From NCBI RefSeq assembly GCF_011045215.1, contig NZ_CP049201.1: a DNA stretch of 64,000 bases; one strand, 5' to 3'. Each line of letters opens with the position of its first letter. Positions within the stretch are counted from its first letter, which is position 1. The DNA is from Escherichia coli. Lineage in GTDB: Bacteria; Pseudomonadota; Gammaproteobacteria; Enterobacterales; Enterobacteriaceae. The notes under the pieces were generated by a model. The model ran no database searches, was not told where the DNA came from, and worked only from the letters and a program-made list of their open reading frames with translations. The position numbers and the translations under genes were made by a program. Of the stretch, positions 7,466-53,501 are shown piece by piece.

Positions 7466-7837
7466 AGCTCCTCCTTAATGACAGGGTTGCGAAGCCCTGA
7501 TTCTCTTCAGGGTGAATATTAAAGATAACACAAACATCGCGTAACGATTTGATAACAACCCAAATTGATAAAAGAGGAGAAACCTTGTGGCAAAGCAAAT
7601 GACAACCCCGCCGCAGCGGGGTCAAGGATCAGTGAGTAATGATCCAGAGGAGTTCGGCCCAGAAGAGCATCGACAGAGAAAACGCGCCCATCCAGGACCA
7701 ATATTTCATATTTGTGTTGATCATAGGCTACACCCTTAACGGTTATTACTTTGTGTTGAGATAACTCAACCTGTTATTGCTGCGGTGTATTAAAAGCCCT
7801 GTAATTCATTAAAAATGGGTAATAAGAATGATGATAA

Positions 7838-8007: not shown

Positions 8008-8136
8008 TTATCCCCACACTTTCCAAATCAGCAGTGCGACAACCACCCAGAAAAGTGCAGAACCAAGAAAAACCGCCAGCCAGGCTTTACGTTTTAATTC
8101 AGGATCGCGGCGGGGTTCCTGATTTCCAGAAGGCAT
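8008..8136 (-). CDS. ymiA: Small membrane protein YmiA (42 aa)
   Basis: Hand-translated minus-strand ORF MPSGNQEPRRDPELKRKAWLAVFLGSALFWVVVALLIWKVWG; below ORF-track length cutoff. Confidence 0.5.
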   Translation of the reverse strand: MPSGNQEPRRDPELKRKAWLAVFLGSALFWVVVALLIWKVWG

Positions 8137-20214: not shown

Positions 20215-20259
20215 ATGAAAGCAATTTTCGTACTGAAAGCTTGGTGGCGCACTTCCTGA
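20215..20259 (+). CDS. trpL: trp leader peptide (14 aa, tandem Trp codons)
   Basis: ATG AAA GCA ATT TTC GTA CTG AAA GCT TGG TGG CGC ACT TCC TGA; reads [14 protein letters not shown]. Confidence 0.9.
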   Translation: [14 protein letters not shown]

Positions 20260-20301
20260 AACGGGCAGTGTATTCACCATGCGTAAAGCAATCAGATACC
20301 C

Positions 20302-20329
20302 AGCCCGCCTAATGAGCGGGCTTTTTTTT
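20302..20329 (+). terminator. trp attenuator (3:4 terminator hairpin)
   Basis: AGCCCGCCTAATGAGCGGGCT followed by TTTTTTTT, between trpL and trpE. Confidence 0.9.
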
Positions 20330-28948: not shown

Positions 28949-29061
28949 TTGACAGTTTTTGTTCTCCGGGGCTATATTCCTCACACAACCGCAAAATCGG
29001 TTGTCGGGATTGGCGTCCCGGATGTTTACGGAGCGATATAAGACGCGCCCGCGTCTTTTTT
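28949..29061 (+). ncRNA. Candidate small RNA: sigma70-like promoter, about 75-nt structured transcript, intrinsic terminator
   Basis: TTGACA 28949-28954, 18-bp spacer, TATATT 28973-28978; two internal hairpins (CAACCG..CGGTTG, CGGGA..TCCCG); terminator AGACGCG-CCC-GCGTCT + TTTTT at 29041-29061. Confidence 0.3.
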
Positions 29062-29224
29062 CATATCGTTTGCACAGTCACATTCGCGATTTATGGCGGG
29101 CTGTGTGGGGGAGCCGAAAGGCTCGCCGGTTTCCGTACCCGGTTACGCCAACCCTGCACAGTTCGCCACCAGTTCGATTGGCGTCGTCGGTGGCGATAAT
29201 TTCCAAATGTACGGAGTTATCGTT

Positions 29225-40299: not shown

Positions 40300-41206
40300 C
40301 GGTTGCCTCCACCTTGTTCAGTGTGACTGAGCGACACCATGGAGCCTGTCCCATCGCCGGAACAATATCACTGGCCGGCGATTTCAGTGCCACCGTAATC
40401 ACCCCCGTCTGATGCAGGGCTCCGTCCATACCGGAGCAGGACGCCACAGAACCAATCCGGTGAACACTGTCAGTGTATGTCTGCAGCGCCTGACGGGCAT
40501 TTTTCATCACCAGTTCACCATCCAGCCCGTAGGGAATATGAATATCTGCAACCACATCGTAGAGAATAATTTCTGCCGCACGGACACTGACAAAATCCGT
40601 CAGAGGTCGAATTTCATCATCATTGACTGACGCTGCCACCTTATCCAGCAGGGGTTGCGATGCCGTACCGTTTCCGGTTCGCGATAACACATAAAGAAAA
40701 ACACGCCCTTCCTGTGAATGCGTTTCCGGCCCGTAGGCTTTCACATCCAGCACATCAGGATCAGCACTCTGTGCAAAATAATGGTAAGCATTTTTCGCAC
40801 CGGCTGTACTGAGTCGCGCCCACGACAACTGAATACGCTCACGAAAGGCATCATCCCCTTCATACACCGCCGGTGTGGGCGGGATAGTGCTGTCATCTGC
40901 CGGAGTAATCACCAGACGTTGCACCTGAAAATTCGCACCAATCTGATCCAGATCGTTCCTGCGGGCACTGGCAAGCAGTACAGCCCGGACTGCATCATTG
41001 ACCTGCTGGCGCATCAGCGCCACCCGAAAAGCAAGCGCCTCCGCCCATTTATACGCCGGATCTGATTCCACCAGGGCCGAAAACAACGTGTCCAGTTCCT
41101 GATATTTCGCCACTATCTGAGTGACCAGCACAGCGGTGTCCGGCACCTCCACCGCATCCGGTACAGGTATCGCGGACAAATCAATAATGGCCTGAGACGT
41201 TGTCAA
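40292..41206 (-). CDS. Baseplate assembly protein J (P2 gpJ-like)
   Basis: 304-aa ORF; ...ITPADDSTIPPTPAV... identical stretch to recalled P2 J. Confidence 0.8.
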   Translation of the reverse strand: MTTSQAIIDLSAIPVPDAVEVPDTAVLVTQIVAKYQELDTLFSALVESDPAYKWAEALAFRVALMRQQVNDAVRAVLLASARRNDLDQIGANFQVQRLVITPADDSTIPPTPAVYEGDDAFRERIQLSWARLSTAGAKNAYHYFAQSADPDVLDVKAYGPETHSQEGRVFLYVLSRTGNGTASQPLLDKVAASVNDDEIRPLTDFVSVRAAEIILYDVVADIHIPYGLDGELVMKNARQALQTYTDSVHRIGSVASCSGMDGALHQTGVITVALKSPASDIVPAMGQAPWCRSVTLNKVEATDE

Positions 41207-41537
41207 TTCTGATTTCCTCCAGACGAATTGTTTCCTGTGTTTCGTTATTCACGCCCAAAAGCGTCAACATGACATTTCCCTCACCGCCGAAGCTCACCTC
41301 CACACGGCGGATCGTCAGTCTCGGTTCCCAGCGTTCAAGAGCGGTAACCGTCTCACGGACAATCCTCACCCGTGTGAAATCATCCTGCGGGTTATCAAGC
41401 AGACTGAACAACCTGCTGCCGTATTCCCTGAGAAGTACCCGGCTGCCGACTGGTGTTGACAAAATATCGGTGACGGACTGACGCAGATGTTCGTTACCGT
41501 GCAGATATCTGCCGGTGGCGGAATCAATACCAATCAT
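41181..41537 (-). CDS. Baseplate protein W (P2 gpW / gp25-like)
   Basis: ORF track 41181..41627; start taken at MIGIDSATGRYL (ATG 41537); SVTDILSTPVGSRV resembles recalled P2 W. Confidence 0.75.
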   Translation of the reverse strand: MIGIDSATGRYLHGNEHLRQSVTDILSTPVGSRVLLREYGSRLFSLLDNPQDDFTRVRIVRETVTALERWEPRLTIRRVEVSFGGEGNVMLTLLGVNNETQETIRLEEIRIDNVSGHY

Positions 41538-41571
41538 GAAATTTTTCCGAAAAAAAACGCCGGTGCGGCGT

Positions 41572-42195
41572 TCACATTTCCTGGTTAGGTTTACGGGTGG
41601 TTCCCCCGCTGTCGCCAGGGTGATCATGAGTATTATAAATTTCGCGAATTTTACTCATGCTGCCGGTTTTATCGGTGATCTCCTGTGAGGCACCGATATT
41701 GCCCAGAACCTGCGTATCGGCATTAATCTTCGTTTCTCCCTGCACAGTCAGGGTATCCGTGATTTCCACCGGACCGTCCAGCGTTCCCCTGCCGGTGATT
41801 TTATAGCTGCCGCTTTCAGCCAGCGTGATGGACAGGGCATTGGCTTTACGGTCGTAACGGATTTCCGTTCCGGTATCAAACAAAATAACATGCTCGTGTT
41901 CACTGCCCGCCGGTACAGGAATGGCGTCAATATTCGCCCCCGGATACACACGACCGTTACGCAGATCGCCCGCCTCCGATATCACCGTGACCGCATCTCC
42001 TGGTGCCGGGTAATTACTGACCTGCATGTAACGCCCGGACTGCATCTGAATCCAGGGCAACGGCGGCGAAAGCACATCTCCGATATCCACCCGAACCATC
42101 ACCGGGTTACCCGGGATCACCTCTTCCACCACGCCGCGACGGATCATGTCCGCCACCCTGCGGCGTAACTCTGCCACTTCATCCGCCAGACTCAT
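41572..42195 (-). CDS. Baseplate spike protein V (P2 gpV-like)
   Basis: ORF track 41572..42354; start taken at MSLADEVAELRRRV (ATG 42195); C-terminus HDHPGDSGGTT as in P2 V. Confidence 0.8.
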   Translation of the reverse strand: MSLADEVAELRRRVADMIRRGVVEEVIPGNPVMVRVDIGDVLSPPLPWIQMQSGRYMQVSNYPAPGDAVTVISEAGDLRNGRVYPGANIDAIPVPAGSEHEHVILFDTGTEIRYDRKANALSITLAESGSYKITGRGTLDGPVEITDTLTVQGETKINADTQVLGNIGASQEITDKTGSMSKIREIYNTHDHPGDSGGTTRKPNQEM

Positions 42196-42348: not shown

Positions 42349-42760
42349 AAGCAAACAAACAAGATAATAAGTTGAATTTAAAGGAATAAAAAAGGCATCA
42401 TTTTTGCTTTTGGTACAAATTCTAGTCCGTATAAACGCGGAAAAATCCGCTAAATTAAGATAAAAAAGATGCTTAGATAGTTACTATGTTTAGCTTCATG
42501 GCTACGGGGAGTAAGTTTGCTCTTTGCTTAATCTCGGTTATGGAAATCCCCATATCGGCATCATGCCCACCAGCGTGACGCATTTTTTTTAATTTCGCGG
42601 GTATAAAAATTTGACGAGGCGGGCGGTCCCATAAGCAATGGGGTGTAGGGATTCCGATCCCCCTGGGGGGGGTATTAAACACCCACCCTATTTAAATACC
42701 GTCTTTTTTGTCACTGTGTGTCACTGGTTGTCACTCTCCGTCACGGTATGCCACCATAAG

Positions 42761-43075
42761 TTAACGTCGTAACCGCTCCGGCTTCTTCCAGTGGTAAGTA
42801 ATTTTTTCTTTCTCCTGGTACATCTGCACGCGGCGACGGTATGACAACATCTCCAGAACTCTGGTGCGTATATTGCGCATATCCACGCCGTTAAGCTCAA
42901 TACCGTCACGGCGCATCACCTCAGCCACCACACGCGCGTAATTTTCGGCTATCACGCTGTCCGGCTGCGTGGCCTCCTGTTTGCCTGCTGGTGGTCTGAT
43001 TCCGGCAGCACGGCGAATCATTTTGAGCATTTCGGCTTCGGTCATTGTCATGGCCTCCGTGGTGATGGAAAACAA
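42761..43075 (-). CDS. Hypothetical protein downstream of element terS
   Basis: 104-aa ORF, no recognised motif; start uncertain (Met at 43075, 43051 or 43045). Confidence 0.4.
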   Translation of the reverse strand: MFSITTEAMTMTEAEMLKMIRRAAGIRPPAGKQEATQPDSVIAENYARVVAEVMRRDGIELNGVDMRNIRTRVLEMLSYRRRVQMYQEKEKITYHWKKPERLRR

Positions 43076-43310
43076 TGCCGTAATTGTGGCGGGTCCTTCC
43101 TGGAAAATGAAACACCGGGGGTGGCCATACGCGCAATTCTTAACTGTTTATGAAAATTTTTCGGGAAAAGTCAGATCCGTTCTTCTTCTCTGTAACTCAT
43201 TGTTTAATGGTAAAATCATCAAAAAAAGAAAGGATCTGGCAGTGGTCATTCTGGGCCCAAAATGACGTTATCAGATCCTTTCTCAGTTTTGTTCAATAAT
43301 TGCGCGGTTG

Positions 43311-43895
43311 TCACTCAGCTCTCTGTTGCCGTAACTTCTCCGGCACGTTTCCGGTTGTTTCCATCAGATAATCTTCCAGAATGCGGGGCAGGTTATCGGC
43401 AGTTTTAGCGCACGCATTACAGGCGCGTGCTGTTTCCCTCCTCAGGCCATCGATCATTGCCGGAGTCATCGCGGGAAACTGCCTTTGCATCGTAAGGGGC
43501 AAGCTATTCATGATGGTTGAAATCTGTTGCGCCAGTTTAGACAGTGCATACATACAAAAGCCGGTATCTATAACCTCTCCTGTCTCCCTGGCGTTCTTCA
43601 GTTCCTGCCCGTCAGCCTGTGCTTTAGTGAGACGGTATCGTTCGTACTCTGTTGTGCCTGGCTGTAAATCTGATTCACCAACGGCACGTAAATCATCAAG
43701 CTCACTGCGGAGTTTTTCTTTTTCGATCTCCTTCTCCCTCTGTACATACCATTCGATCACCTGTGAAGAGTCGAAAGTCACCTCCATACCTTTTCCGCCA
43801 CCAGATACATGGGGGAGCCCTTGCATCTGCCAACGTTCAATTGTGCGCGGATCAACACCGAAAATCTCTGCCAGTCTCTTTTTGTTAACATTCAT
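43311..43895 (-). CDS. Terminase small subunit, lambda Nu1-like (element copy)
   Basis: N-terminus MNVNKKRLAEIFGVDPRTIERWQMQGLPHVSGGGKGMEV resembles recalled lambda Nu1 winged HTH; C-terminal half similar to the prophage TerS at 62051..62560. Confidence 0.8.
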   Translation of the reverse strand: MNVNKKRLAEIFGVDPRTIERWQMQGLPHVSGGGKGMEVTFDSSQVIEWYVQREKEIEKEKLRSELDDLRAVGESDLQPGTTEYERYRLTKAQADGQELKNARETGEVIDTGFCMYALSKLAQQISTIMNSLPLTMQRQFPAMTPAMIDGLRRETARACNACAKTADNLPRILEDYLMETTGNVPEKLRQQRAE

Positions 43896-44039
43896 TTATC
43901 AAATCCTCATCAAAAACCACCTCCGACATGAAACGCCTGAAAAACGGGATTTTCCGGCGTTATGGTGTCGTATGTTTATTATAGTTAATTTAAATAAAAA
44001 CATAATGTTACATGCAAGAAGTACCGACATGCTTTTTCC

Positions 44040-44115
44040 CTGAAAAATTTTCATAAATAGTGAAAATCTGCGCGTCTGCCGCCCCGCGGTGTTTCTGATT
44101 CTGGAAAGGACCCGT
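44040..44115. other. Lambda-like cos site of the element
   Basis: GAAAAATTTTCATAAATAG ... GCGCGTCTGCCGCCCCGCGG ... GGAAAGGACCCG; reverse complement resembles the lambda cos junction (CGCTATTTATGAAAATTTTCC, GGGCGGCGACCT, GGGTCCTTTCC); about 185 bp upstream of terS. Confidence 0.6.
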
Positions 44116-44194
44116 GAAAATTGGGGCGATCACCACCGTTCCGGATACAAAAAAAATCGCGAGACCTTGCCAGCCTCGCGAACGTTCATTTCAG

Positions 44195-44620
44195 TTACTT
44201 AACAGACAGCAACAGCTTTTCATCTTCGGTCAGTCCGGCGTTGCCATCACCGGCTGCTGGCCCAACACATTTCGGGCTGTGCTTTTCCATGTACGCTTCA
44301 AACAGAAAAGCCGTTTTCTTTTCCTGCATCATTGCCTGGGCATCCACGGCAGCCAGTAACGTTTGTGCATAGGTTACTGTCATTACTTCAGAACCACACT
44401 CAATCAGCTTACTGGTGAACTCAGGGTATTTTGATGCCAGCGGTAACGCCTTGATACCCTCTATGCGCTGTTTATCACTCTCAGCCTTTGCAGTAAGCAC
44501 CGTTCGGGCTTCTGTCAGTGATGCGCCATTATTTGCGAGATTTTCCGCAAGCGTCGGGTATTTCTGCGCCTCAGGCAGTGCCATGATCAATGCTCTGGTT
44601 GAATTTGCTTTCTCAGTCAT
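44195..44620 (-). CDS. Hypothetical head-module protein (possible scaffold)
   Basis: 141-aa ORF between decoration-like gene and cos; no recognised motif. Confidence 0.45.
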   Translation of the reverse strand: MTEKANSTRALIMALPEAQKYPTLAENLANNGASLTEARTVLTAKAESDKQRIEGIKALPLASKYPEFTSKLIECGSEVMTVTYAQTLLAAVDAQAMMQEKKTAFLFEAYMEKHSPKCVGPAAGDGNAGLTEDEKLLLSVK

Positions 44621-44634
44621 AAATCACCACAAAA

Positions 44635-44964
44635 TTATTGCCCTAAAGGCTGCACGGAAATACCGGAACCAACAAAAGACGACACTTTTTTCTCGAACGT
44701 GTCCGCTGTATCAGGCCAGTTAATTTCATCGATATTAAAAACCCCGCACTTATAAACCTGTGCGCGGTTTTTTGTGGCCGTGTTAATGTCCGATATGGTC
44801 AGATACACCGCCTTACCGGGTGTACCGTCCCACTCAACCATCAGGCCCGCGCCGTTCTGCATCAGCGGAGTTCTCGCTTTAATTTCTCCGGCACTGGCAA
44901 AACAGGCCAGCGTGCTGACCAGTTCCTGCGTGCCGGAAAGGAATTGCGTGTAAGGTGTTGGCAT
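44635..44964 (-). CDS. Head decoration protein homologue (lambda gpD-like, element copy)
   Basis: RTPLM..VEWDGTPGKAV...YKCGVF..INWPD...FVGSGISV parallels the gpD pattern TPLM..VAWDG...YKSGTF...WP..AF.GTAIS. Confidence 0.65.
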   Translation of the reverse strand: MPTPYTQFLSGTQELVSTLACFASAGEIKARTPLMQNGAGLMVEWDGTPGKAVYLTISDINTATKNRAQVYKCGVFNIDEINWPDTADTFEKKVSSFVGSGISVQPLGQ

Positions 44965-44974
44965 ACGATCCCCT

Positions 44975-46030
44975 TTATTTCACTTCGACGGTAACAAAGC
45001 GACCAATATCCACGGGTACTGGCTGCGGGGCGCTGTGCGTCTGCACGTATTCAATCGCCGGATCGCCCGGTACGATATAATTTTTCGGGTAGTACATCCC
45101 CTCAGAAAATCCCTCGCGTGCCGCGTCCTGATCCATGATGGCACCATAAGCAACAAGGCCTTTATTTTCGGTATTGCCGAAAACCATCATGTTTTGTTTC
45201 AGGAAATATTGCTGCTGCCCGTTTTCGTCGTCATAACGACCGGAATAAACCACGATCGCCACATCACCGAGATACCCCTTGAAGCTGACAACGCCGCCCA
45301 AATCTTTTAGCGCAAGTTCAAGTGACGAGTTTGAACCGCGACGCGTGTCCATTAGTTCGCGGAATCGACGGAACGAGCGCAAAATACGCCAGGCTTCGCC
45401 ACCCATGACGATAATATTTACCGTACCTTCGGAAAAATCAGCGTAAGCCTCAATGTCGCTTATCGGATCAAACGTTTCGGCATCCTGTTTTGACCATTCT
45501 TTCCCGCCAGCCTGCGTAATATGATTGGTTTCGGGTAATCCCCAGTCAATTTCATAACGCTCAATGCCTTCGCCCTCAATAACGTTACGGCCTGTTGTGA
45601 TGGCATTGACCGCCAGCCATTCAACACGCGCTTTGATGGCAGCAAGCTGTTTTTTCTGGCTGTCGTGAACCATTTTTACGCGGCGTAGTGCCGGGGAAGA
45701 CTGACCATTGCCGATCTGTTCTCCAGGCATGCGCATGATTGTTTTGGTGGGATCAATAACGTGTTTGGGCTTCATATAACCCGGCGTGAACGTGTTCGTT
45801 GTGAAACCTTTGTCACGCATAACCTGGCTGCCTGACATTGGAGAACAAAACGGACTCATGACCACGTTTTCAATATCCAGCGTATCAAGTGCAATATCTC
45901 TGGTGCTGAAAGTAGCGACGTTCGGAAAGAACAACGTAGTAAAGAGTGGATTAAATTTAAATTCCGGCACATCTTCGCGCCCGATATTTTTCAGTAGCGT
46001 TGGTGTGCTTACCAGTTGCGGCGCTGTCAT
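44975..46030 (-). CDS. Major capsid protein homologue (lambda gpE-like, element copy)
   Basis: 351-aa ORF; TPGYMKPKH, NHITQAGGKEWSKQDAETFDP, KELMDTRRGSNSSLELALKDLGGVVSFKGY align with the prophage gpE at 55439..56467. Confidence 0.8.
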   Translation of the reverse strand: MTAPQLVSTPTLLKNIGREDVPEFKFNPLFTTLFFPNVATFSTRDIALDTLDIENVVMSPFCSPMSGSQVMRDKGFTTNTFTPGYMKPKHVIDPTKTIMRMPGEQIGNGQSSPALRRVKMVHDSQKKQLAAIKARVEWLAVNAITTGRNVIEGEGIERYEIDWGLPETNHITQAGGKEWSKQDAETFDPISDIEAYADFSEGTVNIIVMGGEAWRILRSFRRFRELMDTRRGSNSSLELALKDLGGVVSFKGYLGDVAIVVYSGRYDDENGQQQYFLKQNMMVFGNTENKGLVAYGAIMDQDAAREGFSEGMYYPKNYIVPGDPAIEYVQTHSAPQPVPVDIGRFVTVEVK

Positions 46031-46266
46031 TACTCACCCCCATGAGGCTGATTCATACCAAGCGCAGCGCGTAAATGGCTGCGTACCATCCAGCCGACTG
46101 ACGGCTTCACCAGGCACAACGGATCAAGGCCGATTTTTTTTCCTGCCTCTGCGTTCTCCTCAAAGCGCGCATTAAGTGCGGCGATAATATCGGGGCTGAT
46201 GTACACGGATACACCGCCCGGCTTCTGTGTTCCCATAAATGAGATTCCTCTTTGACTAAAAAACAA
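46030..46266 (-). CDS. Hypothetical protein upstream of capsid homologue
   Basis: 78-aa ORF, start uncertain; no recognised motif. Confidence 0.35.
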   Translation of the reverse strand: MFFSQRGISFMGTQKPGGVSVYISPDIIAALNARFEENAEAGKKIGLDPLCLVKPSVGWMVRSHLRAALGMNQPHGGE

Positions 46267-46457
46267 ACATAACGAAAAGTCATGTCATGATTTTAATTAT
46301 CGTTGCACTTTTTGCAATATAATTGACTATTGTTGCGAATAATGAAATCATTATGTCGTGGTTTTAATCCTTGTACCACAGAGTTGTTTAGCATTAATCA
46401 CGTTAGCGGCGTGAAATCCCCCGGAACCTCATCCCGGGGGATTTTTTTGCGCACAAA

Positions 46458-46482
46458 AAAGCCGGGAAAAATCCCGGCTTCT
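46458..46482 (-). terminator. Terminator after element ssb
   Basis: AGCCGGGA..TCCCGGCT hairpin followed by TTTTTTGTG on the minus strand, just after ssb stop. Confidence 0.5.
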
Positions 46483-46494
46483 GTCACTCGTTGC

Positions 46495-46917
46495 TTAAAA
46501 CGGTATTTCATCCCCGTACGGATCATCATTTCCCGCCTGTTGTTTTGCTCTGCTCAGTGCATCAGTAGCCTGCCCCTGTTGGCCTTTTTTGCCGCCCGGT
46601 CGCGCCGTTCTGGCACTGATTACACTGTCTGCGATAACCTGCCAGCTCTGCCGCGTTTCGCCGTTCTGGCCTGTCCACTGGCTTACCTGCATGTTACCCG
46701 CCACGCTCACCAGTTCGCCTTTGCGGTGTTTTGCCAGTGCGTCGGCCTGTCTGCCAAACGCCAGGACGGATAACCACATCGTCGCCGTTCCGTCATCTGC
46801 CTGGCTGCACGGCAGGGGAACCGCCATACTCGCCATCGCCATTTGTGTTCCCTTGCTGGTGGTCTTTAACTGCGGGTCAGCCACCAGCCGCCCGTAAGCT
46901 GCTATCTGTGCTGTCAT
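46495..46917 (-). CDS. Single-stranded DNA-binding protein (SSB-like) with acidic C-terminal tip
   Basis: 140-aa ORF; C-terminus ...NDDPYGDEIPF resembles the SSB tail ...DFDDDIPF. Confidence 0.7.
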   Translation of the reverse strand: MTAQIAAYGRLVADPQLKTTSKGTQMAMASMAVPLPCSQADDGTATMWLSVLAFGRQADALAKHRKGELVSVAGNMQVSQWTGQNGETRQSWQVIADSVISARTARPGGKKGQQGQATDALSRAKQQAGNDDPYGDEIPF

Positions 46918-47165
46918 GCTGTCTGCTCTCCGGTTTTAACGTTGATGGTTGTCACCTGTTCCGCTTCGGCAATCTCCCGCTCTGTCAGCGTGGCAAAGTT
47001 TGCCGCCGCTGTGGTCATGAATGCGCTTATCAGTTCGGGATGTGCTTTTGCGTATCCTTCTCCGGCATGGCGGTCTATTGTTCTGATTGCCACCTTTAAG
47101 GCGTGCTCTGTCATGTCTAACGCTTTATATTTTGGCGCTGTCTTATCTCTGGTTTTTTTGGTCAT
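46914..47165 (-). CDS. Hypothetical protein
   Basis: 83-aa ORF, ATGA overlap with ssb start. Confidence 0.45.
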   Translation of the reverse strand: MTKKTRDKTAPKYKALDMTEHALKVAIRTIDRHAGEGYAKAHPELISAFMTTAAANFATLTEREIAEAEQVTTINVKTGEQTA

Positions 47166-47370
47166 TTCTCACTATTCCCCACTTTTTCGCCTCACTTTTT
47201 AAGCTCCCAACATGATTTCCAACCTTGTTTTTTTGTGATTCTAATATGTTGTTTTTCAATGTGTTTTTTATTCCTCACTTTTGAGCCTATATACAGGTTG
47301 AAAAGTGAGGGGCGCGGTTGCTTTTTGTTCAGTTTCTGCTATCCCCTCACTTTTGTGCCTCACTTTTTAC
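47165..47370. repeat. Iteron array with AT-rich core (candidate replication origin of the element)
   Basis: CTCACTTTT at 47191, 47274, 47346, 47361 and inverted AAAAGTGAGG at 47301, flanking an AT-rich stretch (47225-47275), directly downstream of the helicase gene. Confidence 0.55.
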
Positions 47371-48782
47371 AGTGGGCGCACATCATCACCGTCAATAGTG
47401 ATAACGCCGTCTCTTTCCAGCTTGTACAGCCAGCGCCGAAAGTTTTTCATCTCATACCCCAGCTTTTTCATATCATCACGCAATAACGGGATAGTGCATT
47501 TATCGCCGCGCTGTGTGCGTGAACGGATACAGCCCCATAGCGCGGCGTGATTCTCCGTCTTGTTTCCGGCCTCCTCAATGCGCTCCAGTTCAACAGGTGG
47601 GCGCGGCTTATCCACTACCACCAGCGACGTGATTAACTCCTTGTCAGCGTCGATAAAAAGCTCCACCACGCGTAAATCGTATGCGGCCTCTTTCAGTTCC
47701 TCTGCGTCCTTCATTTTGGTGCAGGAGATAACCAGGGCTTCACTGTCTGCACCTTCCCGGCGAATACGGTATTCAGCGTCCAGAGATGCACGAAATGCAC
47801 TGGAACCACGCGCCCCCTTTGTTTCATCCTTGCCGGAATGGTGAACCACCAGTACCGTGGCCCCTGTGCGTCGTTTCAGTTCGTCACATCCACGGATAAA
47901 CGCCCCCATATCCCGCGCGTCATTTTCATCATTACCGCCAAAACACCGCGCCAGCGTATCCAGAATAATCATGCGTACCGGTTTACCCGTTTCCCTTTCA
48001 ACCTGGCGGGAAGCGATGACCATTTCATCAATATCAAACTGTGCTGCCGGAAAAATCGGGCGGTTTACCAGGTACAGATTTTTCACCCGTTCATCATTAA
48101 CGATTTCCCATGCTTTGATACGACGAGGGACACCAATGCCACCTTCACCGACGACATACATCACCGAACCATGCGCCACCCTGCGGCCTCCCCAGTGGCG
48201 ACCCGTGGCAACATGACACGCCCAGGAACACGCGAGGAATGATTTATAGGAACCGCTCGCGCCGTATGTGCTGCACAACGAATTAGCCGGAATCACGCCC
48301 TTAACGACATAATCAAGCTGTGTGTCGTACCCTGCAGATCCAATACTCATTGGTAGCGTGGTTTTTCGCTGGTCGTTTTTTTCTTCCTCCGGTATCTCTC
48401 CGGACCGTCTTTTCTGGCGCTCTCGTTCCAGATATTCGCGCCACCCCTCCCGCTTCTGGCTGTGCATTCCCTCAGGGTAATAATTCGCATCCCGTACACC
48501 TGCCGCTGCCAGCTTTTGCCCGATGGCATTAATATTTGACGGCTTGATGTGGCCTGCCTTGTACAGCCGGACACAATAGCGACCATCGTCGATAATTTTC
48601 AGGTCAGCCAGTTCGTCAAGATGGCTGTCTCCAAGCCATACAGGCGGAACATTGTCGCCAGCAAGTCGCCCGTCCTGCTCCTGCCATTGTTTCGCGTGCG
48701 CCCAGGCATCACTACCCGCAAAAATAATGACTTCGGTCATTTTGTCGTGCGGCTGTTTTTTTAAGTTCGGTGCCAGTTTCAT
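47367..48782 (-). CDS. Replication protein, RepA/DnaB-like P-loop helicase
   Basis: 471-aa ORF with Walker A GASGSYKS and RecA-like core; C-terminal winged-helix-like region. Confidence 0.7.
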   Translation of the reverse strand: MKLAPNLKKQPHDKMTEVIIFAGSDAWAHAKQWQEQDGRLAGDNVPPVWLGDSHLDELADLKIIDDGRYCVRLYKAGHIKPSNINAIGQKLAAAGVRDANYYPEGMHSQKREGWREYLERERQKRRSGEIPEEEKNDQRKTTLPMSIGSAGYDTQLDYVVKGVIPANSLCSTYGASGSYKSFLACSWACHVATGRHWGGRRVAHGSVMYVVGEGGIGVPRRIKAWEIVNDERVKNLYLVNRPIFPAAQFDIDEMVIASRQVERETGKPVRMIILDTLARCFGGNDENDARDMGAFIRGCDELKRRTGATVLVVHHSGKDETKGARGSSAFRASLDAEYRIRREGADSEALVISCTKMKDAEELKEAAYDLRVVELFIDADKELITSLVVVDKPRPPVELERIEEAGNKTENHAALWGCIRSRTQRGDKCTIPLLRDDMKKLGYEMKNFRRWLYKLERDGVITIDGDDVRPL

Positions 48783-49078
48783 TTTTTACCCCTGAATGCG
48801 TTAATCATGTTTTTCATTTTCTGAATGTTCGCCCGTGCCTTTGCGTTGCTGGTGGGCTGTTTGCATGGCGTGGCCTGTATCAGTGAAAAATCACGCCGGA
48901 ACTGATAAACAGGCATCACGCAGTCATAGCCGTACCCATCACGGCGGTAAGTAACGCACCGTCCCGCCACGCTTTTAATCGTTACCGTGCCGCCGTAGTT
49001 ATCCCGGAAAATATCGCCGGGGCGGATTTCAGGCCGAGCGGGGCCGCTGGCAGTAAAGCCAGAAATTTTCTGTTTCAT
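48779..49078 (-). CDS. Hypothetical protein
   Basis: 99-aa ORF, ATGA overlap with helicase start. Confidence 0.4.
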   Translation of the reverse strand: MKQKISGFTASGPARPEIRPGDIFRDNYGGTVTIKSVAGRCVTYRRDGYGYDCVMPVYQFRRDFSLIQATPCKQPTSNAKARANIQKMKNMINAFRGKK

Positions 49079-49286
49079 GGTTTTTATTCCTCTGCGCGGG
49101 TCTTGTTGTGTATTTCCATAACCGCGTTTAATTCATCAATAACCGGGGTTAACAGAGTGCTGAAAGCAGAAAATAAATCCCCCCCCCTGTTCGGCATGAA
49201 CTTCGGTTAATTTAATTAATACCGCTTTCATTTCCAGTGCCCGGTTTAATGCATTCTCAGAATGAATAAGAACATCGAAAGGGATT

Positions 49287-49520
49287 TTATCCATGGCTTA
49301 CATCCTCCGGGAATTTTCTTCTGTAACGCGCCTCTGCAACATATTCCGCATAGTCCGACGCAATATTGAGAATCTCCACACCCTCTGACCTGTAGCCACT
49401 GGTACTGATAAGAAAAAATGCGGCTTTCATCATGTCGGCAACGCATAACAACGCATCGCCTGTATGTTCCGGTGCGCCATCAAATTCCTGTTTCAGGGCA
49501 TTAAAACGATCATCACGCAT
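49287..49520 (-). CDS. Hypothetical protein (may be the 3' part of one gene frameshifted at a C9 tract)
   Basis: 77-aa ORF; begins inside poly-C/G tract 49523-49531. Confidence 0.3.
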   Translation of the reverse strand: MRDDRFNALKQEFDGAPEHTGDALLCVADMMKAAFFLISTSGYRSEGVEILNIASDYAEYVAEARYRRKFPEDVSHG

Positions 49521-49753
49521 AACCCCCCCCCATTTTCACAATCAGTAATCAGGATGGCTTTAGCCTCATTCAGTGCCATATCAGCACTAAATTGCATAAC
49601 AGCCAGTGAGTGAGGAACGAAATCCCCGGCATATTCTGTTTCGCTGGTGGCGTGCTTATGTGCCCTGTCCGCGATAACAGAAATATCAATCAGCGCGTGC
49701 ATCAGCGTTTTGATGGCTTCGGCGGCTGCGTCCTGACGGGTGTTATTGCACAT
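49493..49753 (-). CDS. Hypothetical protein (may be the 5' part of one gene frameshifted at a C9 tract)
   Basis: 86-aa ORF ending just after poly-C/G tract. Confidence 0.3.
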   Translation of the reverse strand: MCNNTRQDAAAEAIKTLMHALIDISVIADRAHKHATSETEYAGDFVPHSLAVMQFSADMALNEAKAILITDCENGGGLCVMIVLMP

Positions 49754-49949
49754 GGCGCACCTCCTGACGAATACGGGCGGCGAATACCATCACGCAGCCA
49801 TCAGGAGATTGCTGACGCGCTTCCTGTTCGTTGGTGGCCTCAATGGTAATCACGCGCGGTTGTGCCGTGCTCAGGGCGATAAAACGCCAGATGTATTTAT
49901 TCAGGTTGTGCGAGTCCCGCCCTTGCGGGTGTGTGGTATGATTTAACAT
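49743..49949 (-). CDS. Hypothetical small protein, divergent from the RHH gene
   Basis: Start taken at MLNHTTHPQ (ATG 49949, RBS GAGGTA); long upstream extension in ORF track rejected. Confidence 0.4.
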   Translation of the reverse strand: MLNHTTHPQGRDSHNLNKYIWRFIALSTAQPRVITIEATNEQEARQQSPDGCVMVFAARIRQEVRHVQ

Positions 49950-50043
49950 AGCTACCTCGATAATCTTGCTATCGTTGGTGGTTAGACGCCCTGCATGTGT
50001 ACCACCACTGCGGGGCGTTGCGTTTTTTGATGTGCACGTGTTA

Positions 50044-50088
50044 AGGTGTACACCTAACGAACCAAAACATAACGCCATAGGTGTACAC
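50044..50088. promoter_or_regulatory. Two palindromic operator-like sites GTGTACAC in a divergent promoter region
   Basis: AGGTGTACAC at 50044-50053 and 50079-50088, second abutting the RHH start codon. Confidence 0.5.
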
Positions 50089-50283
50089 ATGTCAACAGTT
50101 ATTAAGCGCGATAAAAAACAAAAAGGCACAGGAAAGGCCCCACCATTCCATATGCGTATAGTCCCTGAATTGAAGGAGCAGTTTGATAACGAAGCCAGTA
50201 ACGATGGAGTAAGTCTTGCCAACTGGCTTAAAGAGTTAGGGCGCAAAGAACTGCTACGGCGCGGAATTGAACCAAAGGGATAA
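50089..50283 (+). CDS. Ribbon-helix-helix (Arc/CopG-like) DNA-binding protein
   Basis: ORF track 49966..50283; start taken at MSTVIKRDKKQKG (ATG 50089); APPFHMRIVPELKEQFDNEASNDGVSLANWLKELGRK fits the Arc-type RHH pattern. Confidence 0.6.
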   Translation: MSTVIKRDKKQKGTGKAPPFHMRIVPELKEQFDNEASNDGVSLANWLKELGRKELLRRGIEPKG

Positions 50284-50340
50284 CTATCACTAATGTCGCA
50301 ACCAGAGGAGTTGCGACTCCGAAGATTACATAGGAAATTA

Positions 50341-50823
50341 ATGATTATGGGATTCGTCATTTTCATTGCGATCGTAATTTTATCCATTTACGTTCTTACC
50401 AAATTATTTATTTCAGAAAATTCACACGACAAAATTAGAGCCGAGGCATCCAGAAGAATTGCACAAGAAGAGGCCGAACGGGCTAAGTTGTATGAAGAGA
50501 GAAAGGAATCATCTGATAATCCTGTTAATAAACAAAAACGAATAACAACACACGAAGATCATTTTTATATGGATATTCATGGTGGTCACAAATATATATG
50601 TGTTGATGCTAAGTTAGTTTTTGAATATGCAAATTTAAAACACAACTATTTTCTTCACGCCTCTCACTATTTCCCTGAGTTAGAGTATGTTTATGGAAAA
50701 AACGAACATGGGAAAATAGTTAGAGTAGATTTGTACGATAAAAAAATTCAAGCTATTAACCCCGATACTGGCGAAAAAATACCTGGTGTGAGACGTTATC
50801 TACGACAGCACAAGATAAAATAG
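50341..50823 (+). CDS. AT-rich membrane-anchored protein of unknown function
   Basis: ORF track 50293..50823; start taken at MIMGFVIFIAIVILSIYVL (ATG 50341, RBS AGGAAA); single N-terminal TM helix; markedly lower GC than neighbours. Confidence 0.5.
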   Translation: MIMGFVIFIAIVILSIYVLTKLFISENSHDKIRAEASRRIAQEEAERAKLYEERKESSDNPVNKQKRITTHEDHFYMDIHGGHKYICVDAKLVFEYANLKHNYFLHASHYFPELEYVYGKNEHGKIVRVDLYDKKIQAINPDTGEKIPGVRRYLRQHKIK

Positions 50824-51238
50824 CCCACCGGAATTTTTTTCCGGTTACGCTTTGCCCACCAGCCGCAAATGTGGCATTGTTGGCTATGCTCATGCGTTGG
50901 GGATAACGCGCAATTAGTGTTGAAGGGCCACCGTAGCGGGTGGCCTTTGTTTTGCCTGTTATCCGGCAATTGTGGCGCTTCGCCACACGGTTGATATAAT
51001 CCTCCTGCACAGATTCATTTTTTGCGCAGCAGGTTAATTGTTCGCAAGGGCGCTCCGGCAACTGGGCGCTTTTTGTTTTTACCCACCAGCACAATAAAAA
51101 TCTTCATTTTCCATTTTTGCAAAATTTCATGCTTTCCGGACGACTGGCCATATGTCATTTTTTAGCAGAAGATTTTGCCTTGCTGGTGGGTAGCTTCCCG
51201 GTTAACACGATGTACCGTATAATCAGCACCGCACGCGG

Positions 51239-51820
51239 TTACTGAATACGCTCACCAAAGTAAAACTCAGGCTGATATTCACGTATCAGCCTTTTTTCTT
51301 CTTCCTCCAGCTCACGCTTTTTGCGCTTACATGCCTGTAGTTCCCTCCCCTTCTCGCTGGCACTTATCTGGTATTGCTCTTTGCGACGGGAAAAATCCTG
51401 TAATGCGCCCCACGGGATACCATAAGCCCCCGTTTTTCTGATACCCGGTATCACATTTCTGAATACCCAGTTACTGAAACGATGGGCGAACGTGCCAGGA
51501 GTAGCAGCTTTTCGACTTCTGGCAATCAGCTTGTAAAAACCAGATTCAGAAACGACGCTATGATTTGGATTTCCGCGAATACCGTAAGTTAAAGTTACGG
51601 TATTACTTTCATCATCATCCAGAGCTTGCAACGCCATGCGTGAATTAGTCAGTTCCAGCGCAGCGCAGACATCCTTTGCAACAAACCACGGATCGCCGTT
51701 CAGATACACCACGCGAACGTTCACACTATCAAAGCGCAGAACGACCAGATCACGAATATCACAGAATTTTTTCACTGGACGTGCGTCACCCTTGCCAGTC
51801 ACGGCAATATTTTTATTCAT
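51239..51820 (-). CDS. Bro-N domain protein (antirepressor-like)
   Basis: DIRDLVVLRFDSVNVRVVYLNGDPWFVAKDVCAALEL...GFYKLI..S....A..F..WV fits Bro-N. Confidence 0.7.
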   Translation of the reverse strand: MNKNIAVTGKGDARPVKKFCDIRDLVVLRFDSVNVRVVYLNGDPWFVAKDVCAALELTNSRMALQALDDDESNTVTLTYGIRGNPNHSVVSESGFYKLIARSRKAATPGTFAHRFSNWVFRNVIPGIRKTGAYGIPWGALQDFSRRKEQYQISASEKGRELQACKRKKRELEEEEKRLIREYQPEFYFGERIQ

Positions 51821-51870
51821 CGCTTTTTACCTCACATACAAAAAACCCCGCATTGCGCGGGGTATATCAA

Positions 51871-52080
51871 TCATTGACGATATTCATTAGCTTGTTTTCG
51901 TTGTCTTTCCAGCCACGATGCAACATCATCACGATGCCATGCGTTGCGTCGCCCAATCTTAAAGGGGCGTGGAAATTTATTTTTTTCATCATTCATGAAA
52001 GCGTAAAATGCACTCATTGCACCGTAGCGAAGCTCTGCCATCACGTCTTTGGTAAATAGAATATTGCCGTTAGTGCTCAT
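51871..52080 (-). CDS. AlpA-family regulator / excisionase-like protein
   Basis: 69-aa ORF immediately downstream of integrase, HTH-like core. Confidence 0.65.
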   Translation of the reverse strand: MSTNGNILFTKDVMAELRYGAMSAFYAFMNDEKNKFPRPFKIGRRNAWHRDDVASWLERQRKQANEYRQ

Positions 52081-52086
52081 ATTGCC

Positions 52087-53319
52087 TCACATATTCACTA
52101 CTTTTAGCCCCTGATGACCACCAGAACGACGGATAATTCCCTTTCTGGCATCATCAACAAAATCACCAATCCATTGCATCATGATCTTACGTTGCTCAAA
52201 ATATTTTGAGCGATTATAAATATCACGAATAGCATCGCCGCTTTTATGGGCTAATGCTGCCTCAATAACATCTGGGTTAAACCCTTCTTCGTTGAGTAAC
52301 GTACTCCACATAGCCCGGAATCCGTGGGCAGTTGCAATACCATAAAATTGTCCATCTTTGAAACACTTATGACGCAACACGCTTGATATAGCTTTCCCCG
52401 GATTCTTTGGAGAAAAAAATATATAGCTACCACATTTTATTTTATTCATTTCATTTAAAATATCCACGGCTTGCCGTGAAAGCGGAACTACGTGTTCACG
52501 TCCACACTTCATTCTTTCAGGGGGAATTGTCCAGATACAATTTTCTAAATCAATTTCCTCCCATTTTGCCTCCCTTGCTTCACATGGTCGTACCATAGTG
52601 AAAATCTGGAACAAAAGAGAGCATCTTATAGAGATATTACTTGTAGTATCCCACCAGTTCAAAAATTCTGATAACAGTTCAACTGGTAATGCCTTTAATG
52701 GGGTATGTTTTTTTGTTGCAAATGCATTTCTTATTGTTGATAGCGGGTTATTTTTAATTACTCCAGAGTTAACACAGTAATTCATTATTTCATTAATTTT
52801 TGAAATAATTTTATCCAATACAGAATTACGATCAGAAAATTGATTAAGCAATGGTATGACCACAGGCGCGGTCATATCATGTATGTACACATTTCCAAAT
52901 ACAGGGATTATATGTCTGTTCAATAACTCTTCTATTGTCTGTAAAGTCGACAGTCGCAAATCACCTTTTTTCTTAAAATTAAACCATTCAATTGCAATAG
53001 CACCAAACGTCTGTAAGTGCTTTCTTTTAGCCTCGAGTCGTTTTTCTGCCCGGTATGATAACGGATCTATATCCCGTGCCAACAATCTGCGCAGATTATC
53101 GCGTTCTTCTCTGGCTTCAACCAGCGTGAAATCGGGGTATCGCCCTATAGTGTATGTTTGCCGCTTCTTCGTAAAAGGTTGTACATAACGAAAACGCCAC
53201 GATTTACTACCGGCTTTTGACACATAAAGCAAAAGCCCAAACCCATCATATAGAGCGTAATCTTTCTCTCGTGGCCTGGCGCTTTTTACCTCTGATGCAG
53301 TAAGAGGCTTCACCGACAT
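52087..53319 (-). CDS. Tyrosine recombinase, P4-type integrase
   Basis: ORF track 52087..53418; start taken at MSVKPLTASEVKSARPREKDYALYDGFGLLLYVSKAGSKSWRFRY (ATG 53319); C-terminal catalytic region with HGFR and Y. Confidence 0.85.
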   Translation of the reverse strand: MSVKPLTASEVKSARPREKDYALYDGFGLLLYVSKAGSKSWRFRYVQPFTKKRQTYTIGRYPDFTLVEAREERDNLRRLLARDIDPLSYRAEKRLEAKRKHLQTFGAIAIEWFNFKKKGDLRLSTLQTIEELLNRHIIPVFGNVYIHDMTAPVVIPLLNQFSDRNSVLDKIISKINEIMNYCVNSGVIKNNPLSTIRNAFATKKHTPLKALPVELLSEFLNWWDTTSNISIRCSLLFQIFTMVRPCEAREAKWEEIDLENCIWTIPPERMKCGREHVVPLSRQAVDILNEMNKIKCGSYIFFSPKNPGKAISSVLRHKCFKDGQFYGIATAHGFRAMWSTLLNEEGFNPDVIEAALAHKSGDAIRDIYNRSKYFEQRKIMMQWIGDFVDDARKGIIRRSGGHQGLKVVNM

Positions 53320-53492
53320 ACAAGCACTCCAATACAAATTTTTTCTAGTCCATGCGCTGGTTCCTTTTGCCAGAATACTGGCGATAAAAAAGCGAAAAAC
53401 AAGGAACAATGCACACAATGAAAAAACCGCAACTTATTGAATAAGAAGAAAAACAAAAAGAAACGGTAACGAAAGATAATGATTGCATAGTC

Positions 53493-53501
53493 CAAAAGAG
53501 A
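53493..53501. repeat. Right copy of 9-bp direct repeat CAAAAGAGA (putative att core)
   Basis: Identical to 42340-42348; about 170 bp from the integrase start. Confidence 0.5.

Follow-up and report, generated by a model that had tools for sequence, protein, structure and literature searches.

Positions 46323-46448 of the window (the 64,000-nucleotide stretch of Escherichia coli DNA considered here) lie within a phage satellite and read as an independent small gene for a non-coding RNA of ~90 nt that would serve as a base-pairing regulator, a proposal for which confidence and doubt are evenly balanced. On comparative grounds, the plus-strand transcript itself is likely to be real. Both the production of the RNA and its base-pairing role are what we infer from the DNA of the window and its relatives. 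The interpretations weighed below rank in the order base-pairing regulator, cis-acting antisense unit or insulator, and terminator-only element from which no stable RNA is made. The features concerned are listed in Table 1.

Table 1. Features of the interval and its neighbors, by position in the window. Arrows follow the direction of transcription on the minus strand.
Feature	Position	Strand	Details
Major capsid protein gene, gpE-type	44975-46030	-	Follows the 68-aa gene
First late gene, encoding a 68-aa protein without assigned function	46030-46236	-	
Late-operon Shine-Dalgarno sequence	46251->45	-	AGAGGAA; ATG at 46236
Predicted late-operon leader	46237-46285	-	7-bp hairpin (46285->79 / 46273->67), U-rich run 46266->58
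Capsid/packaging (late) operon promoter	46290-46317	-	Promoter scan; -35 TTGCAA 46317->12, 16 nt, -10 TAAAAT 46295->90
Candidate small-RNA promoter	46323-46351	+	Promoter scan; -35 TTGACT 46323-28, 17-nt spacer, TG 46343-44, -10 AATCAT 46346-51
Predicted non-coding RNA, ~91 nt	46358-46448	+	Predicted start 7 nt past the -10; end in the T-run (46446-48)
Hairpin 1, predicted intrinsic terminator of the plus-strand RNA	46414-46448	+	Stem-loop, T7, family-wide presence
Hairpin 2, ssb/replication-operon intrinsic terminator	46455-46480	-	Stem 46478->46461, U6 46460->46455
ssb, last gene of the replication module	46495-46917	-	PF00436, E = 6e-17

Genomic context of the interval

The interval belongs to an element of ~11 kb (about 42.6-53.5 kb of the window, ~42600-53500), the genes of which all lie on one strand and, as assigned with Pfam, encode an integrase, a BRO-N domain protein, a DUF4222 protein, a RepA-type helicase, Ssb and the late proteins. 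The closest E. coli relative shows the same gene order and adds an annotated small helix-turn-helix regulator and an Icd-like protein. The element is, moreover, collinear with EcCICFT073, the island that lies beside phoQ in E. coli CFT073 and serves as the reference for phage-inducible chromosomal islands (PICIs) of Gram-negative bacteria (PMC6092414). Islands of this type are recognized by an integrase, an AlpA-type helix-turn-helix regulator, a primase or helicase with an iteron origin, a length of ~10 kb, genes in one direction, as described in terms of their transcription (PMC6092414), and late genes that include one for a gpE-type capsid protein. Judged by its Pfam matches, its collinearity with EcCICFT073 and its position within a prophage, the element is an EcCICFT073-type PICI.

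Baseplate genes (gp25-like, 41181-41627) and head genes (beyond 53434) of a prophage flank the satellite, which is co-oriented with them. The closest E. coli relative shows the same embedding, with prophage head and baseplate genes on either side of its island. Such a helper-embedded arrangement of PICIs has been described (PMC10111431), and the satellite of the window matches it. Related copies in other strains were found at tRNA-Pro/yejM or next to phoQ.

Being AT-rich and containing short repeats, the interval might be thought to represent not a gene but the replication origin or packaging site of the satellite, the more so as published PICI origins lie after replication genes (PMC6092414). 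This is, however, the least probable reading offered here, since six CCTCACTTTT iterons (one inverted), which flank an AT-rich core as two sets, are found elsewhere, at 47177-47367. These directly follow the RepA-type helicase gene, in agreement with the published location, and assignment of the interval as the origin was accordingly rejected.

Other regulatory RNA sequences of the window lie outside the satellite. Rfam matches at 28972-29173 (plus strand), ~13 kb away, correspond to a C4-type RNA cassette (c4-a1b1 targets, isrK and C4 antisense RNA). This P1/P4-type immunity cassette presumably belongs to the helper prophage or to another element. The STnc180 sRNA (7595-7797, minus strand) and the trp operon leader (20236-20329, plus strand) are chromosomal landmarks of Escherichia-like character.

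Facing hairpins between ssb and the late operon

Two minus-strand genes, ssb and that encoding the 68-aa protein, are separated by 258 bp, and the interval lies in this gap. All of the credible genes nearby are found on the minus strand, as an earlier note on this DNA had remarked. That note had also pointed to a plus-strand terminator-like hairpin followed by seven T residues, and a hairpin with a perfect 11-bp stem was indeed found at 46414-46448. Its arms, AAATCCCCCGG (46414-46424) and CCGGGGGATTT (46434-46444), are 100% complementary and flank a 9-nt loop, AACCUCAUC, with the T7 stretch occupying 46442-48 of the plus strand. As plus-strand RNA, this hairpin (hairpin 1) folds with a dG of -20.6 kcal/mol (z = -3.6), a value equalled by 0 of 200 shuffled sequences. 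It thus presents the structure of an intrinsic (Rho-independent) terminator, namely, a stem in the 9-12 bp range, strong folding and U7 directly after. Hairpin 1, with a loop longer than usual for terminators, was absent from the output of a simple terminator scan because the loop limit of that scan is 8 nt. Read on the minus strand, the same sequence folds with a dG of -22.7 and a 3-nt loop, and is trailed by UUUCAC, as opposed to U7 on the plus strand. The stem begins 66 nt from the end of the -10 hexamer, and 95 nt from the -35 hexamer, of a promoter-like plus-strand site. These observations support the view that hairpin 1 acts like the plus-strand intrinsic terminator of a short plus-strand unit in an otherwise minus-strand region.

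The terminator of ssb, which the same note had placed immediately beside this hairpin, was located at the adjoining positions 46455-46480. Here, the arms GCCGGGA and TCCCGGC (46461-67 and 46472-78) lie 17 nt past the ssb stop codon (46495), and the structure (hairpin 2) folds with a dG of -18.7 (z = -5.9). Its CFT073 equivalent was picked up by the terminator scan.

Back-to-back promoters and the late-operon leader

The candidate promoter for the plus-strand RNA combines a -35 element with a TG-extended -10 element, AATCAT, that matches the consensus at four of six positions. It stands back-to-back with the promoter of the late operon, which is headed by the 68-aa gene and further encodes the gpE-type major capsid protein, a gpD-type decoration protein, a 141-aa protein and a Nu1-type small terminase. 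In Salmonella relatives, the late promoter reads TTGCGA, 16 nt, TATAAT (10 of 12 consensus matches), and among the 71 homologues collected as described below, its -10 element is TATAAT in 59 and TAAAAT in 12. The -35 hexamers of the two promoters are separated by 5 bp, i.e., 11 bp centre to centre, and because of this proximity the two may compete for RNA polymerase.

A 27-nt direct repeat (46282-46308 and 46353-46379; 74% identical) and a 16-nt inverted repeat (46287-46302 and 46336-46351; 75% complementary) render the two promoters near mirror images of each other, with both -10 regions reading CGAtAAT(t/g)AAATCAT. The TATAAT mentioned in the earlier note corresponds to 46318-23. It is probably not the -10 element, lacking as it does a usable -35 and being replaced in relatives by TGATAT, TGCAAT, CAATAT or CACAAT.

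It had further been proposed that the plus-strand transcript is antisense to the leader of the capsid operon. This part of the earlier note did not hold. As a conserved promoter dedicated to the capsid operon is present (46317->46290), the leader is predicted to run from ~46283 to 46237, initiating at that sigma-70 promoter. The predicted start of the plus-strand RNA is ~75 bp from this leader, on the opposite side and heading in the opposite direction, and the RNA overlaps neither the predicted leader nor ssb nor the 68-aa gene. Control of the capsid operon through direct overlap of the RNA with its leader could only arise if transcription of the operon began upstream of 46448, and with a conserved, near-consensus promoter in place downstream of that point, such control is very improbable. 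The RNA is instead predicted to diverge from the late operon and converge on ssb, and could be antisense only to transcripts that continue past the ssb terminator from upstream.

A hairpin of the form CTGGAT-N4-ATCCAG (CTG-N10-CAG) was noted at the late start site in 58 of the 71 homologues, for example at 8023-8054 of locus L003 and also in L006, L008 and L010 (CTGAATTTATATACAG in the last), with the window counterpart at 46258-46285. We take this palindrome to resemble a ruvAB-type LexA box, and its presence suggests that the capsid/packaging operon of these satellites is under SOS control. In the class to which the window belongs, the palindrome is lost and the -10 element is the weaker TAAAAT; the hairpin persists only in degenerate form, having a G-U pair and a U-run.

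Conservation of the module across the satellite family

Homologues were gathered from E. coli genomes, from Salmonella and a gut metagenome (both through homologues of the 68-aa protein) and from IMG/VR viral contigs, the latter using a sequence pattern restricted to the late promoter. In this manner, 73 distinct sequences were collected, two of which proved to be chance matches, leaving 71 true homologues. A plus-strand hairpin followed by a T-run is found 133-162 nt from the late -10 element in all 71, a count that includes many close relatives, such that the independent evidence is better expressed as the six or seven unrelated sequence classes into which the stems of hairpin 1 fall. These are represented by ATCCCCCGG in the window, GCCCGATAAG in CFT073, AACCCCCAGCC in L006, CCCGCCAGCCG in L008 and L009, AGCCCA in L010 and GCCCGTGC in L005, a different satellite type that carries a ProQ/FinO gene. 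The geometry of the plus-strand promoter, i.e., TTGNNN, 17 nt including TG, and AAnnAT, falls outside the pattern used for collecting homologues and is kept in 70 of the 71.

Such conservation bears on the reading in which no stable plus-strand RNA exists, with hairpin 1 being a bidirectional terminator or structural element and the promoter match a protein-binding site. The better folding of hairpin 1 on the minus strand would be in keeping with this, as would the four to six A residues that precede the stem in some relatives and the four-of-six match of the -10 element. The plus-strand promoter, moreover, occupies positions -45 to -75 relative to the late promoter, where conservation could reflect binding of a protein. 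Yet more T residues follow the stem on the plus than on the minus strand in 69 of the 71 homologues, with 5-8 of the first 8 nt being T on the plus strand (mean, 7.1) and a mean of 4.2 on the minus strand. The T-run, invariant within the CFT073 class (class B), would have no role unless plus-strand transcription arrives there, which argues against the terminator-only reading. Hairpin 1 also travels with the promoter module rather than with ssb. In one group of loci, an insertion of ~170 nt parts the two hairpins, leaving hairpin 1 with the promoter module and hairpin 2 with ssb/perC. Considering this and the promoter geometry as well, it is rather improbable that the module is a terminator and nothing more. 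The insertion itself (L013 4665-4845 and some 20 similar IMG/VR loci) is AT-rich and contains a ATGATGATGATG run.

Of the 5426 complete E. coli genomes, 575 (~11%) carry the class B module, among them UPEC strain CFT073, in which it lies between the perC stop codon and the 68-aa gene (c1498), as well as certain strains of O157:H7 and O55:H7. For the satellite interval, the best match in E. coli was only 93.5% identical, and the interval is unannotated in every one of the E. coli records listed. In a wider sampling of genome contigs, the DNA pattern yielded only chance matches, in unrelated phyla, and a query with the capsid protein led to nothing that was confirmed. Likewise, a search of the phage genome collection gave no match.

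At the roxA-phoQ site of E. coli O157:H7 Sakai lies Sp7 (L117 14712-30172), a capsid-forming PICI whose head module is of HK97 type. Sp7 has ssb and pchE, a perC homologue, and a late region without the small-RNA module. Other O157:H7 strains, such as ECP17-46 (L116), carry a gpE-type island that includes the module, such that O157 lineages differ at the roxA-phoQ locus. Since the late region of Sp7 is without the module, the Hfq-crosslinking dataset from Sakai is uninformative as to its expression.

On the side where ssb would lie, the gene closest to the module in two related satellites encodes a ProQ/FinO-domain protein instead (L005 5334-5864; L010 1911-2387). A perC gene stands between this gene and the module in L005, as does ~380 nt of non-coding DNA in L010. 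The presence of this neighbor hints at a dedicated RNA chaperone in these satellites.

The predicted RNA and constraint on its parts

In the predicted RNA, two stem-loops, one at the 5' end (46358-79) and the other at 46399-413, precede the terminator, and the whole folds with a dG of -30.9 (z = -4.0). One compensatory pair, U-A to C-G, was seen in the 5' stem (L022). Across the satellite family, the length predicted for the RNA is 70-92 nt. No conserved ORF was found in the predicted RNA, with the window encoding MSWF* and strain C311 a 14-aa sequence. A small-protein reading was rejected, given that the ORFs differ between close relatives and that the length of an internal A-run, 5 to 8 nt among class B sequences, shifts the frame. 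The sequence offers what is expected of the build of an enterobacterial base-pairing sRNA, namely, its own promoter-like site, a length within 50-300 nt, a non-coding body and a Rho-independent terminator with six or more U residues in its tail.

A CU-rich motif (CCUC) resembling an anti-Shine-Dalgarno sequence recurs in these RNAs. It is found within the terminator loop given above for the window, in the linker (AACCUCAU) and again in the terminator loop (CCUCUG) of the CFT073 class, and in the loop of L008 (CCUCCUCUU). The AACCUCAU motif is common to classes A and B.

Nucleotide diversity was calculated for 70 distinct 860-nt haplotypes of class B. Third codon positions gave values of 0.136 in the capsid gene and 0.203 in the 68-aa gene. 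By comparison, diversity was 0.042 in the plus-strand promoter, 0.003 in each arm of the terminator and 0 in the T-run, as against 0.143 in the 5' body of the RNA and 0.273 in the terminator loop overall. Within that loop, the core CCTCTG shows a diversity of ~0-0.1 and the flanks are hypervariable. On these measures, the plus-strand promoter, the terminator stem and the T-run are under purifying selection. As constraint on the stem and T-run makes sense only if plus-strand transcription reaches them, this represents the strongest indirect argument for the RNA. At the same time, the near-neutral body of the RNA and its full replacement between classes argue against a single conserved target acted upon in trans.

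The same pattern is what would be predicted were the RNA made but acting in cis, by position, as a convergent antisense unit or insulator that, by being transcribed and by its full complementarity, neutralizes read-through past the ssb terminator: promoter, terminator and position are kept while the body is replaced between classes and drifts near-neutrally. With such a device, the late operon would answer only to its own promoter, and not to read-through from the AlpA-driven early operon or from antiterminated late transcription of the helper, within the late region of which the satellite is co-oriented (PMC10111431). As many as three hairpins face minus-strand read-through, these being hairpin 2, hairpin 1 in reverse and, in relatives, a 14-bp hairpin with a U-run in the late promoter. 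Nonetheless, terminators alone would suffice to insulate the late operon, and the conserved CCUCUG core of the loop, together with the motif shared by classes A and B, suggests that sequence matters. Action purely in cis is the strongest of the competing explanations, albeit one that is more probably wrong than right.

Possible mode of action and target searches

According to the preferred reading, that of a base-pairing regulator, the RNA would start at the extended -10 sigma-70 promoter found back-to-back with the late promoter, run away from the late operon and end at hairpin 1, just short of the convergent ssb terminator. The product would be of an Hfq- or ProQ-type build, in which a 5' stem-loop is followed by a single-stranded stretch and, at the end, by a strong terminator with U7. 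Its CCUC motif, a candidate seed conserved in the terminator loop or the linker, would pair with a ribosome-binding site, the prime candidates being the AGAGGAA of the late operon or a site in a late mRNA of the helper phage. In this way, the RNA would add a layer to control of the satellite late genes.

Potential targets were sought on several levels. Against the 64-kb window, the RNA forms Watson-Crick runs of at most 12, as compared to 10-13 for shuffled sequences. No recurrent site complementary to the loop was found elsewhere in the satellites. When the unpaired portions of the RNA were compared with the cognate late ribosome-binding site, pairing was no better than that of composition-matched shuffles in 12 of 14 representatives, and for the window, such pairing amounts to only 4-5 bp. 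The sequence ATGAGGTT was counted four times in the window, against 1.8 expected; the other three sites are linked to no target, with two lying outside both the element and the helper. A more specific version of the proposal, in which a satellite-encoded regulatory RNA silences or times the capsid operon or helper late mRNAs, with the anti-Shine-Dalgarno loop and its variable flanks as the specificity determinant, is offered as speculation and is unlikely to be correct in full.

Comparison with known regulatory RNAs and operons

The predicted module fits no known Rfam family or described analogue. A search of Rfam 15 returned nothing at the gathering threshold for the interval or for five related loci, with the best sub-threshold match, ncr1175 (35.6 of 60 bits), reflecting generic two-terminator resemblance. 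In the literature on PICIs, no small RNA of this kind was found to be described.

Among the nearest parallels are those offered by lambdoid prophages of EHEC, which carry convergent sRNA genes encoding AgvB, AsxR and other EcOnc RNAs, for which Hfq binding and anti-sRNA activity have been shown (PMC4104026). Like the EcOnc genes, the candidate considered here would yield a short RNA of a mobile element from its own promoter, with a Rho-independent terminator, and lies convergently behind a coding gene in a late region; the regions of unequal variability and the use of the terminator loop for contacts in EcOnc RNAs may also find a likeness in the module (PMC4104026). The two are, however, unrelated in terms of sequence or Rfam family, and EcOnc genes belong to complete prophages, in which they occupy the moron site past pR', whereas the present candidate is found in a satellite, back-to-back with the late promoter. 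Identity with Esr41 was rejected, as the Rfam family of that RNA, RF02676, gives no match.

OOP of phage lambda and FinP of the F plasmid, RNAs of ~77-80 nt with stem-loops and a terminator, are similarly transcribed within a control region against the direction of the main operon. FinP needs a FinO-domain chaperone, and in the related satellites described above, a FinO/ProQ-domain gene is the nearest on the ssb side, although in the satellite of the window this position is taken by ssb. Unlike OOP and FinP, which overlap cII and the traJ leader, respectively, the predicted RNA overlaps no annotated gene or predicted late leader.

Regulatory RNAs of phage satellites are also exemplified by P4 CI RNA and C4/isrK (RF01695, RF01394), immunity RNAs of which PICIs are reported to carry homologues in their Bro zone (PMC10111431). 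These differ from the candidate in being located in that early zone, in being processed from a longer transcript and in acting on seqA/seqC-type sites, and neither family has an Rfam match in the interval. Finally, the satellite late operon resembles operon I of SaPIs, a LexA-controlled packaging operon (Ubeda et al. 2007, as cited in PMC6092414), in having a separate promoter for packaging/capsid genes and, in most relatives, a LexA-box-like palindrome at the late start. A divergent small RNA is not known to have been described for SaPIs, and the copy in the window is itself without the palindrome.

Implications

Were the module only an insulator, the finding would be of local interest. If borne out, the small-RNA gene would be another mobile-element sRNA missed by annotation pipelines, and a new and easily testable component of satellite-helper biology. 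Should the RNA indeed act upon capsid or helper late mRNAs through its variably flanked loop, this would reveal an RNA layer in the conflict between satellites and their helpers, one that diversifies between lineages.
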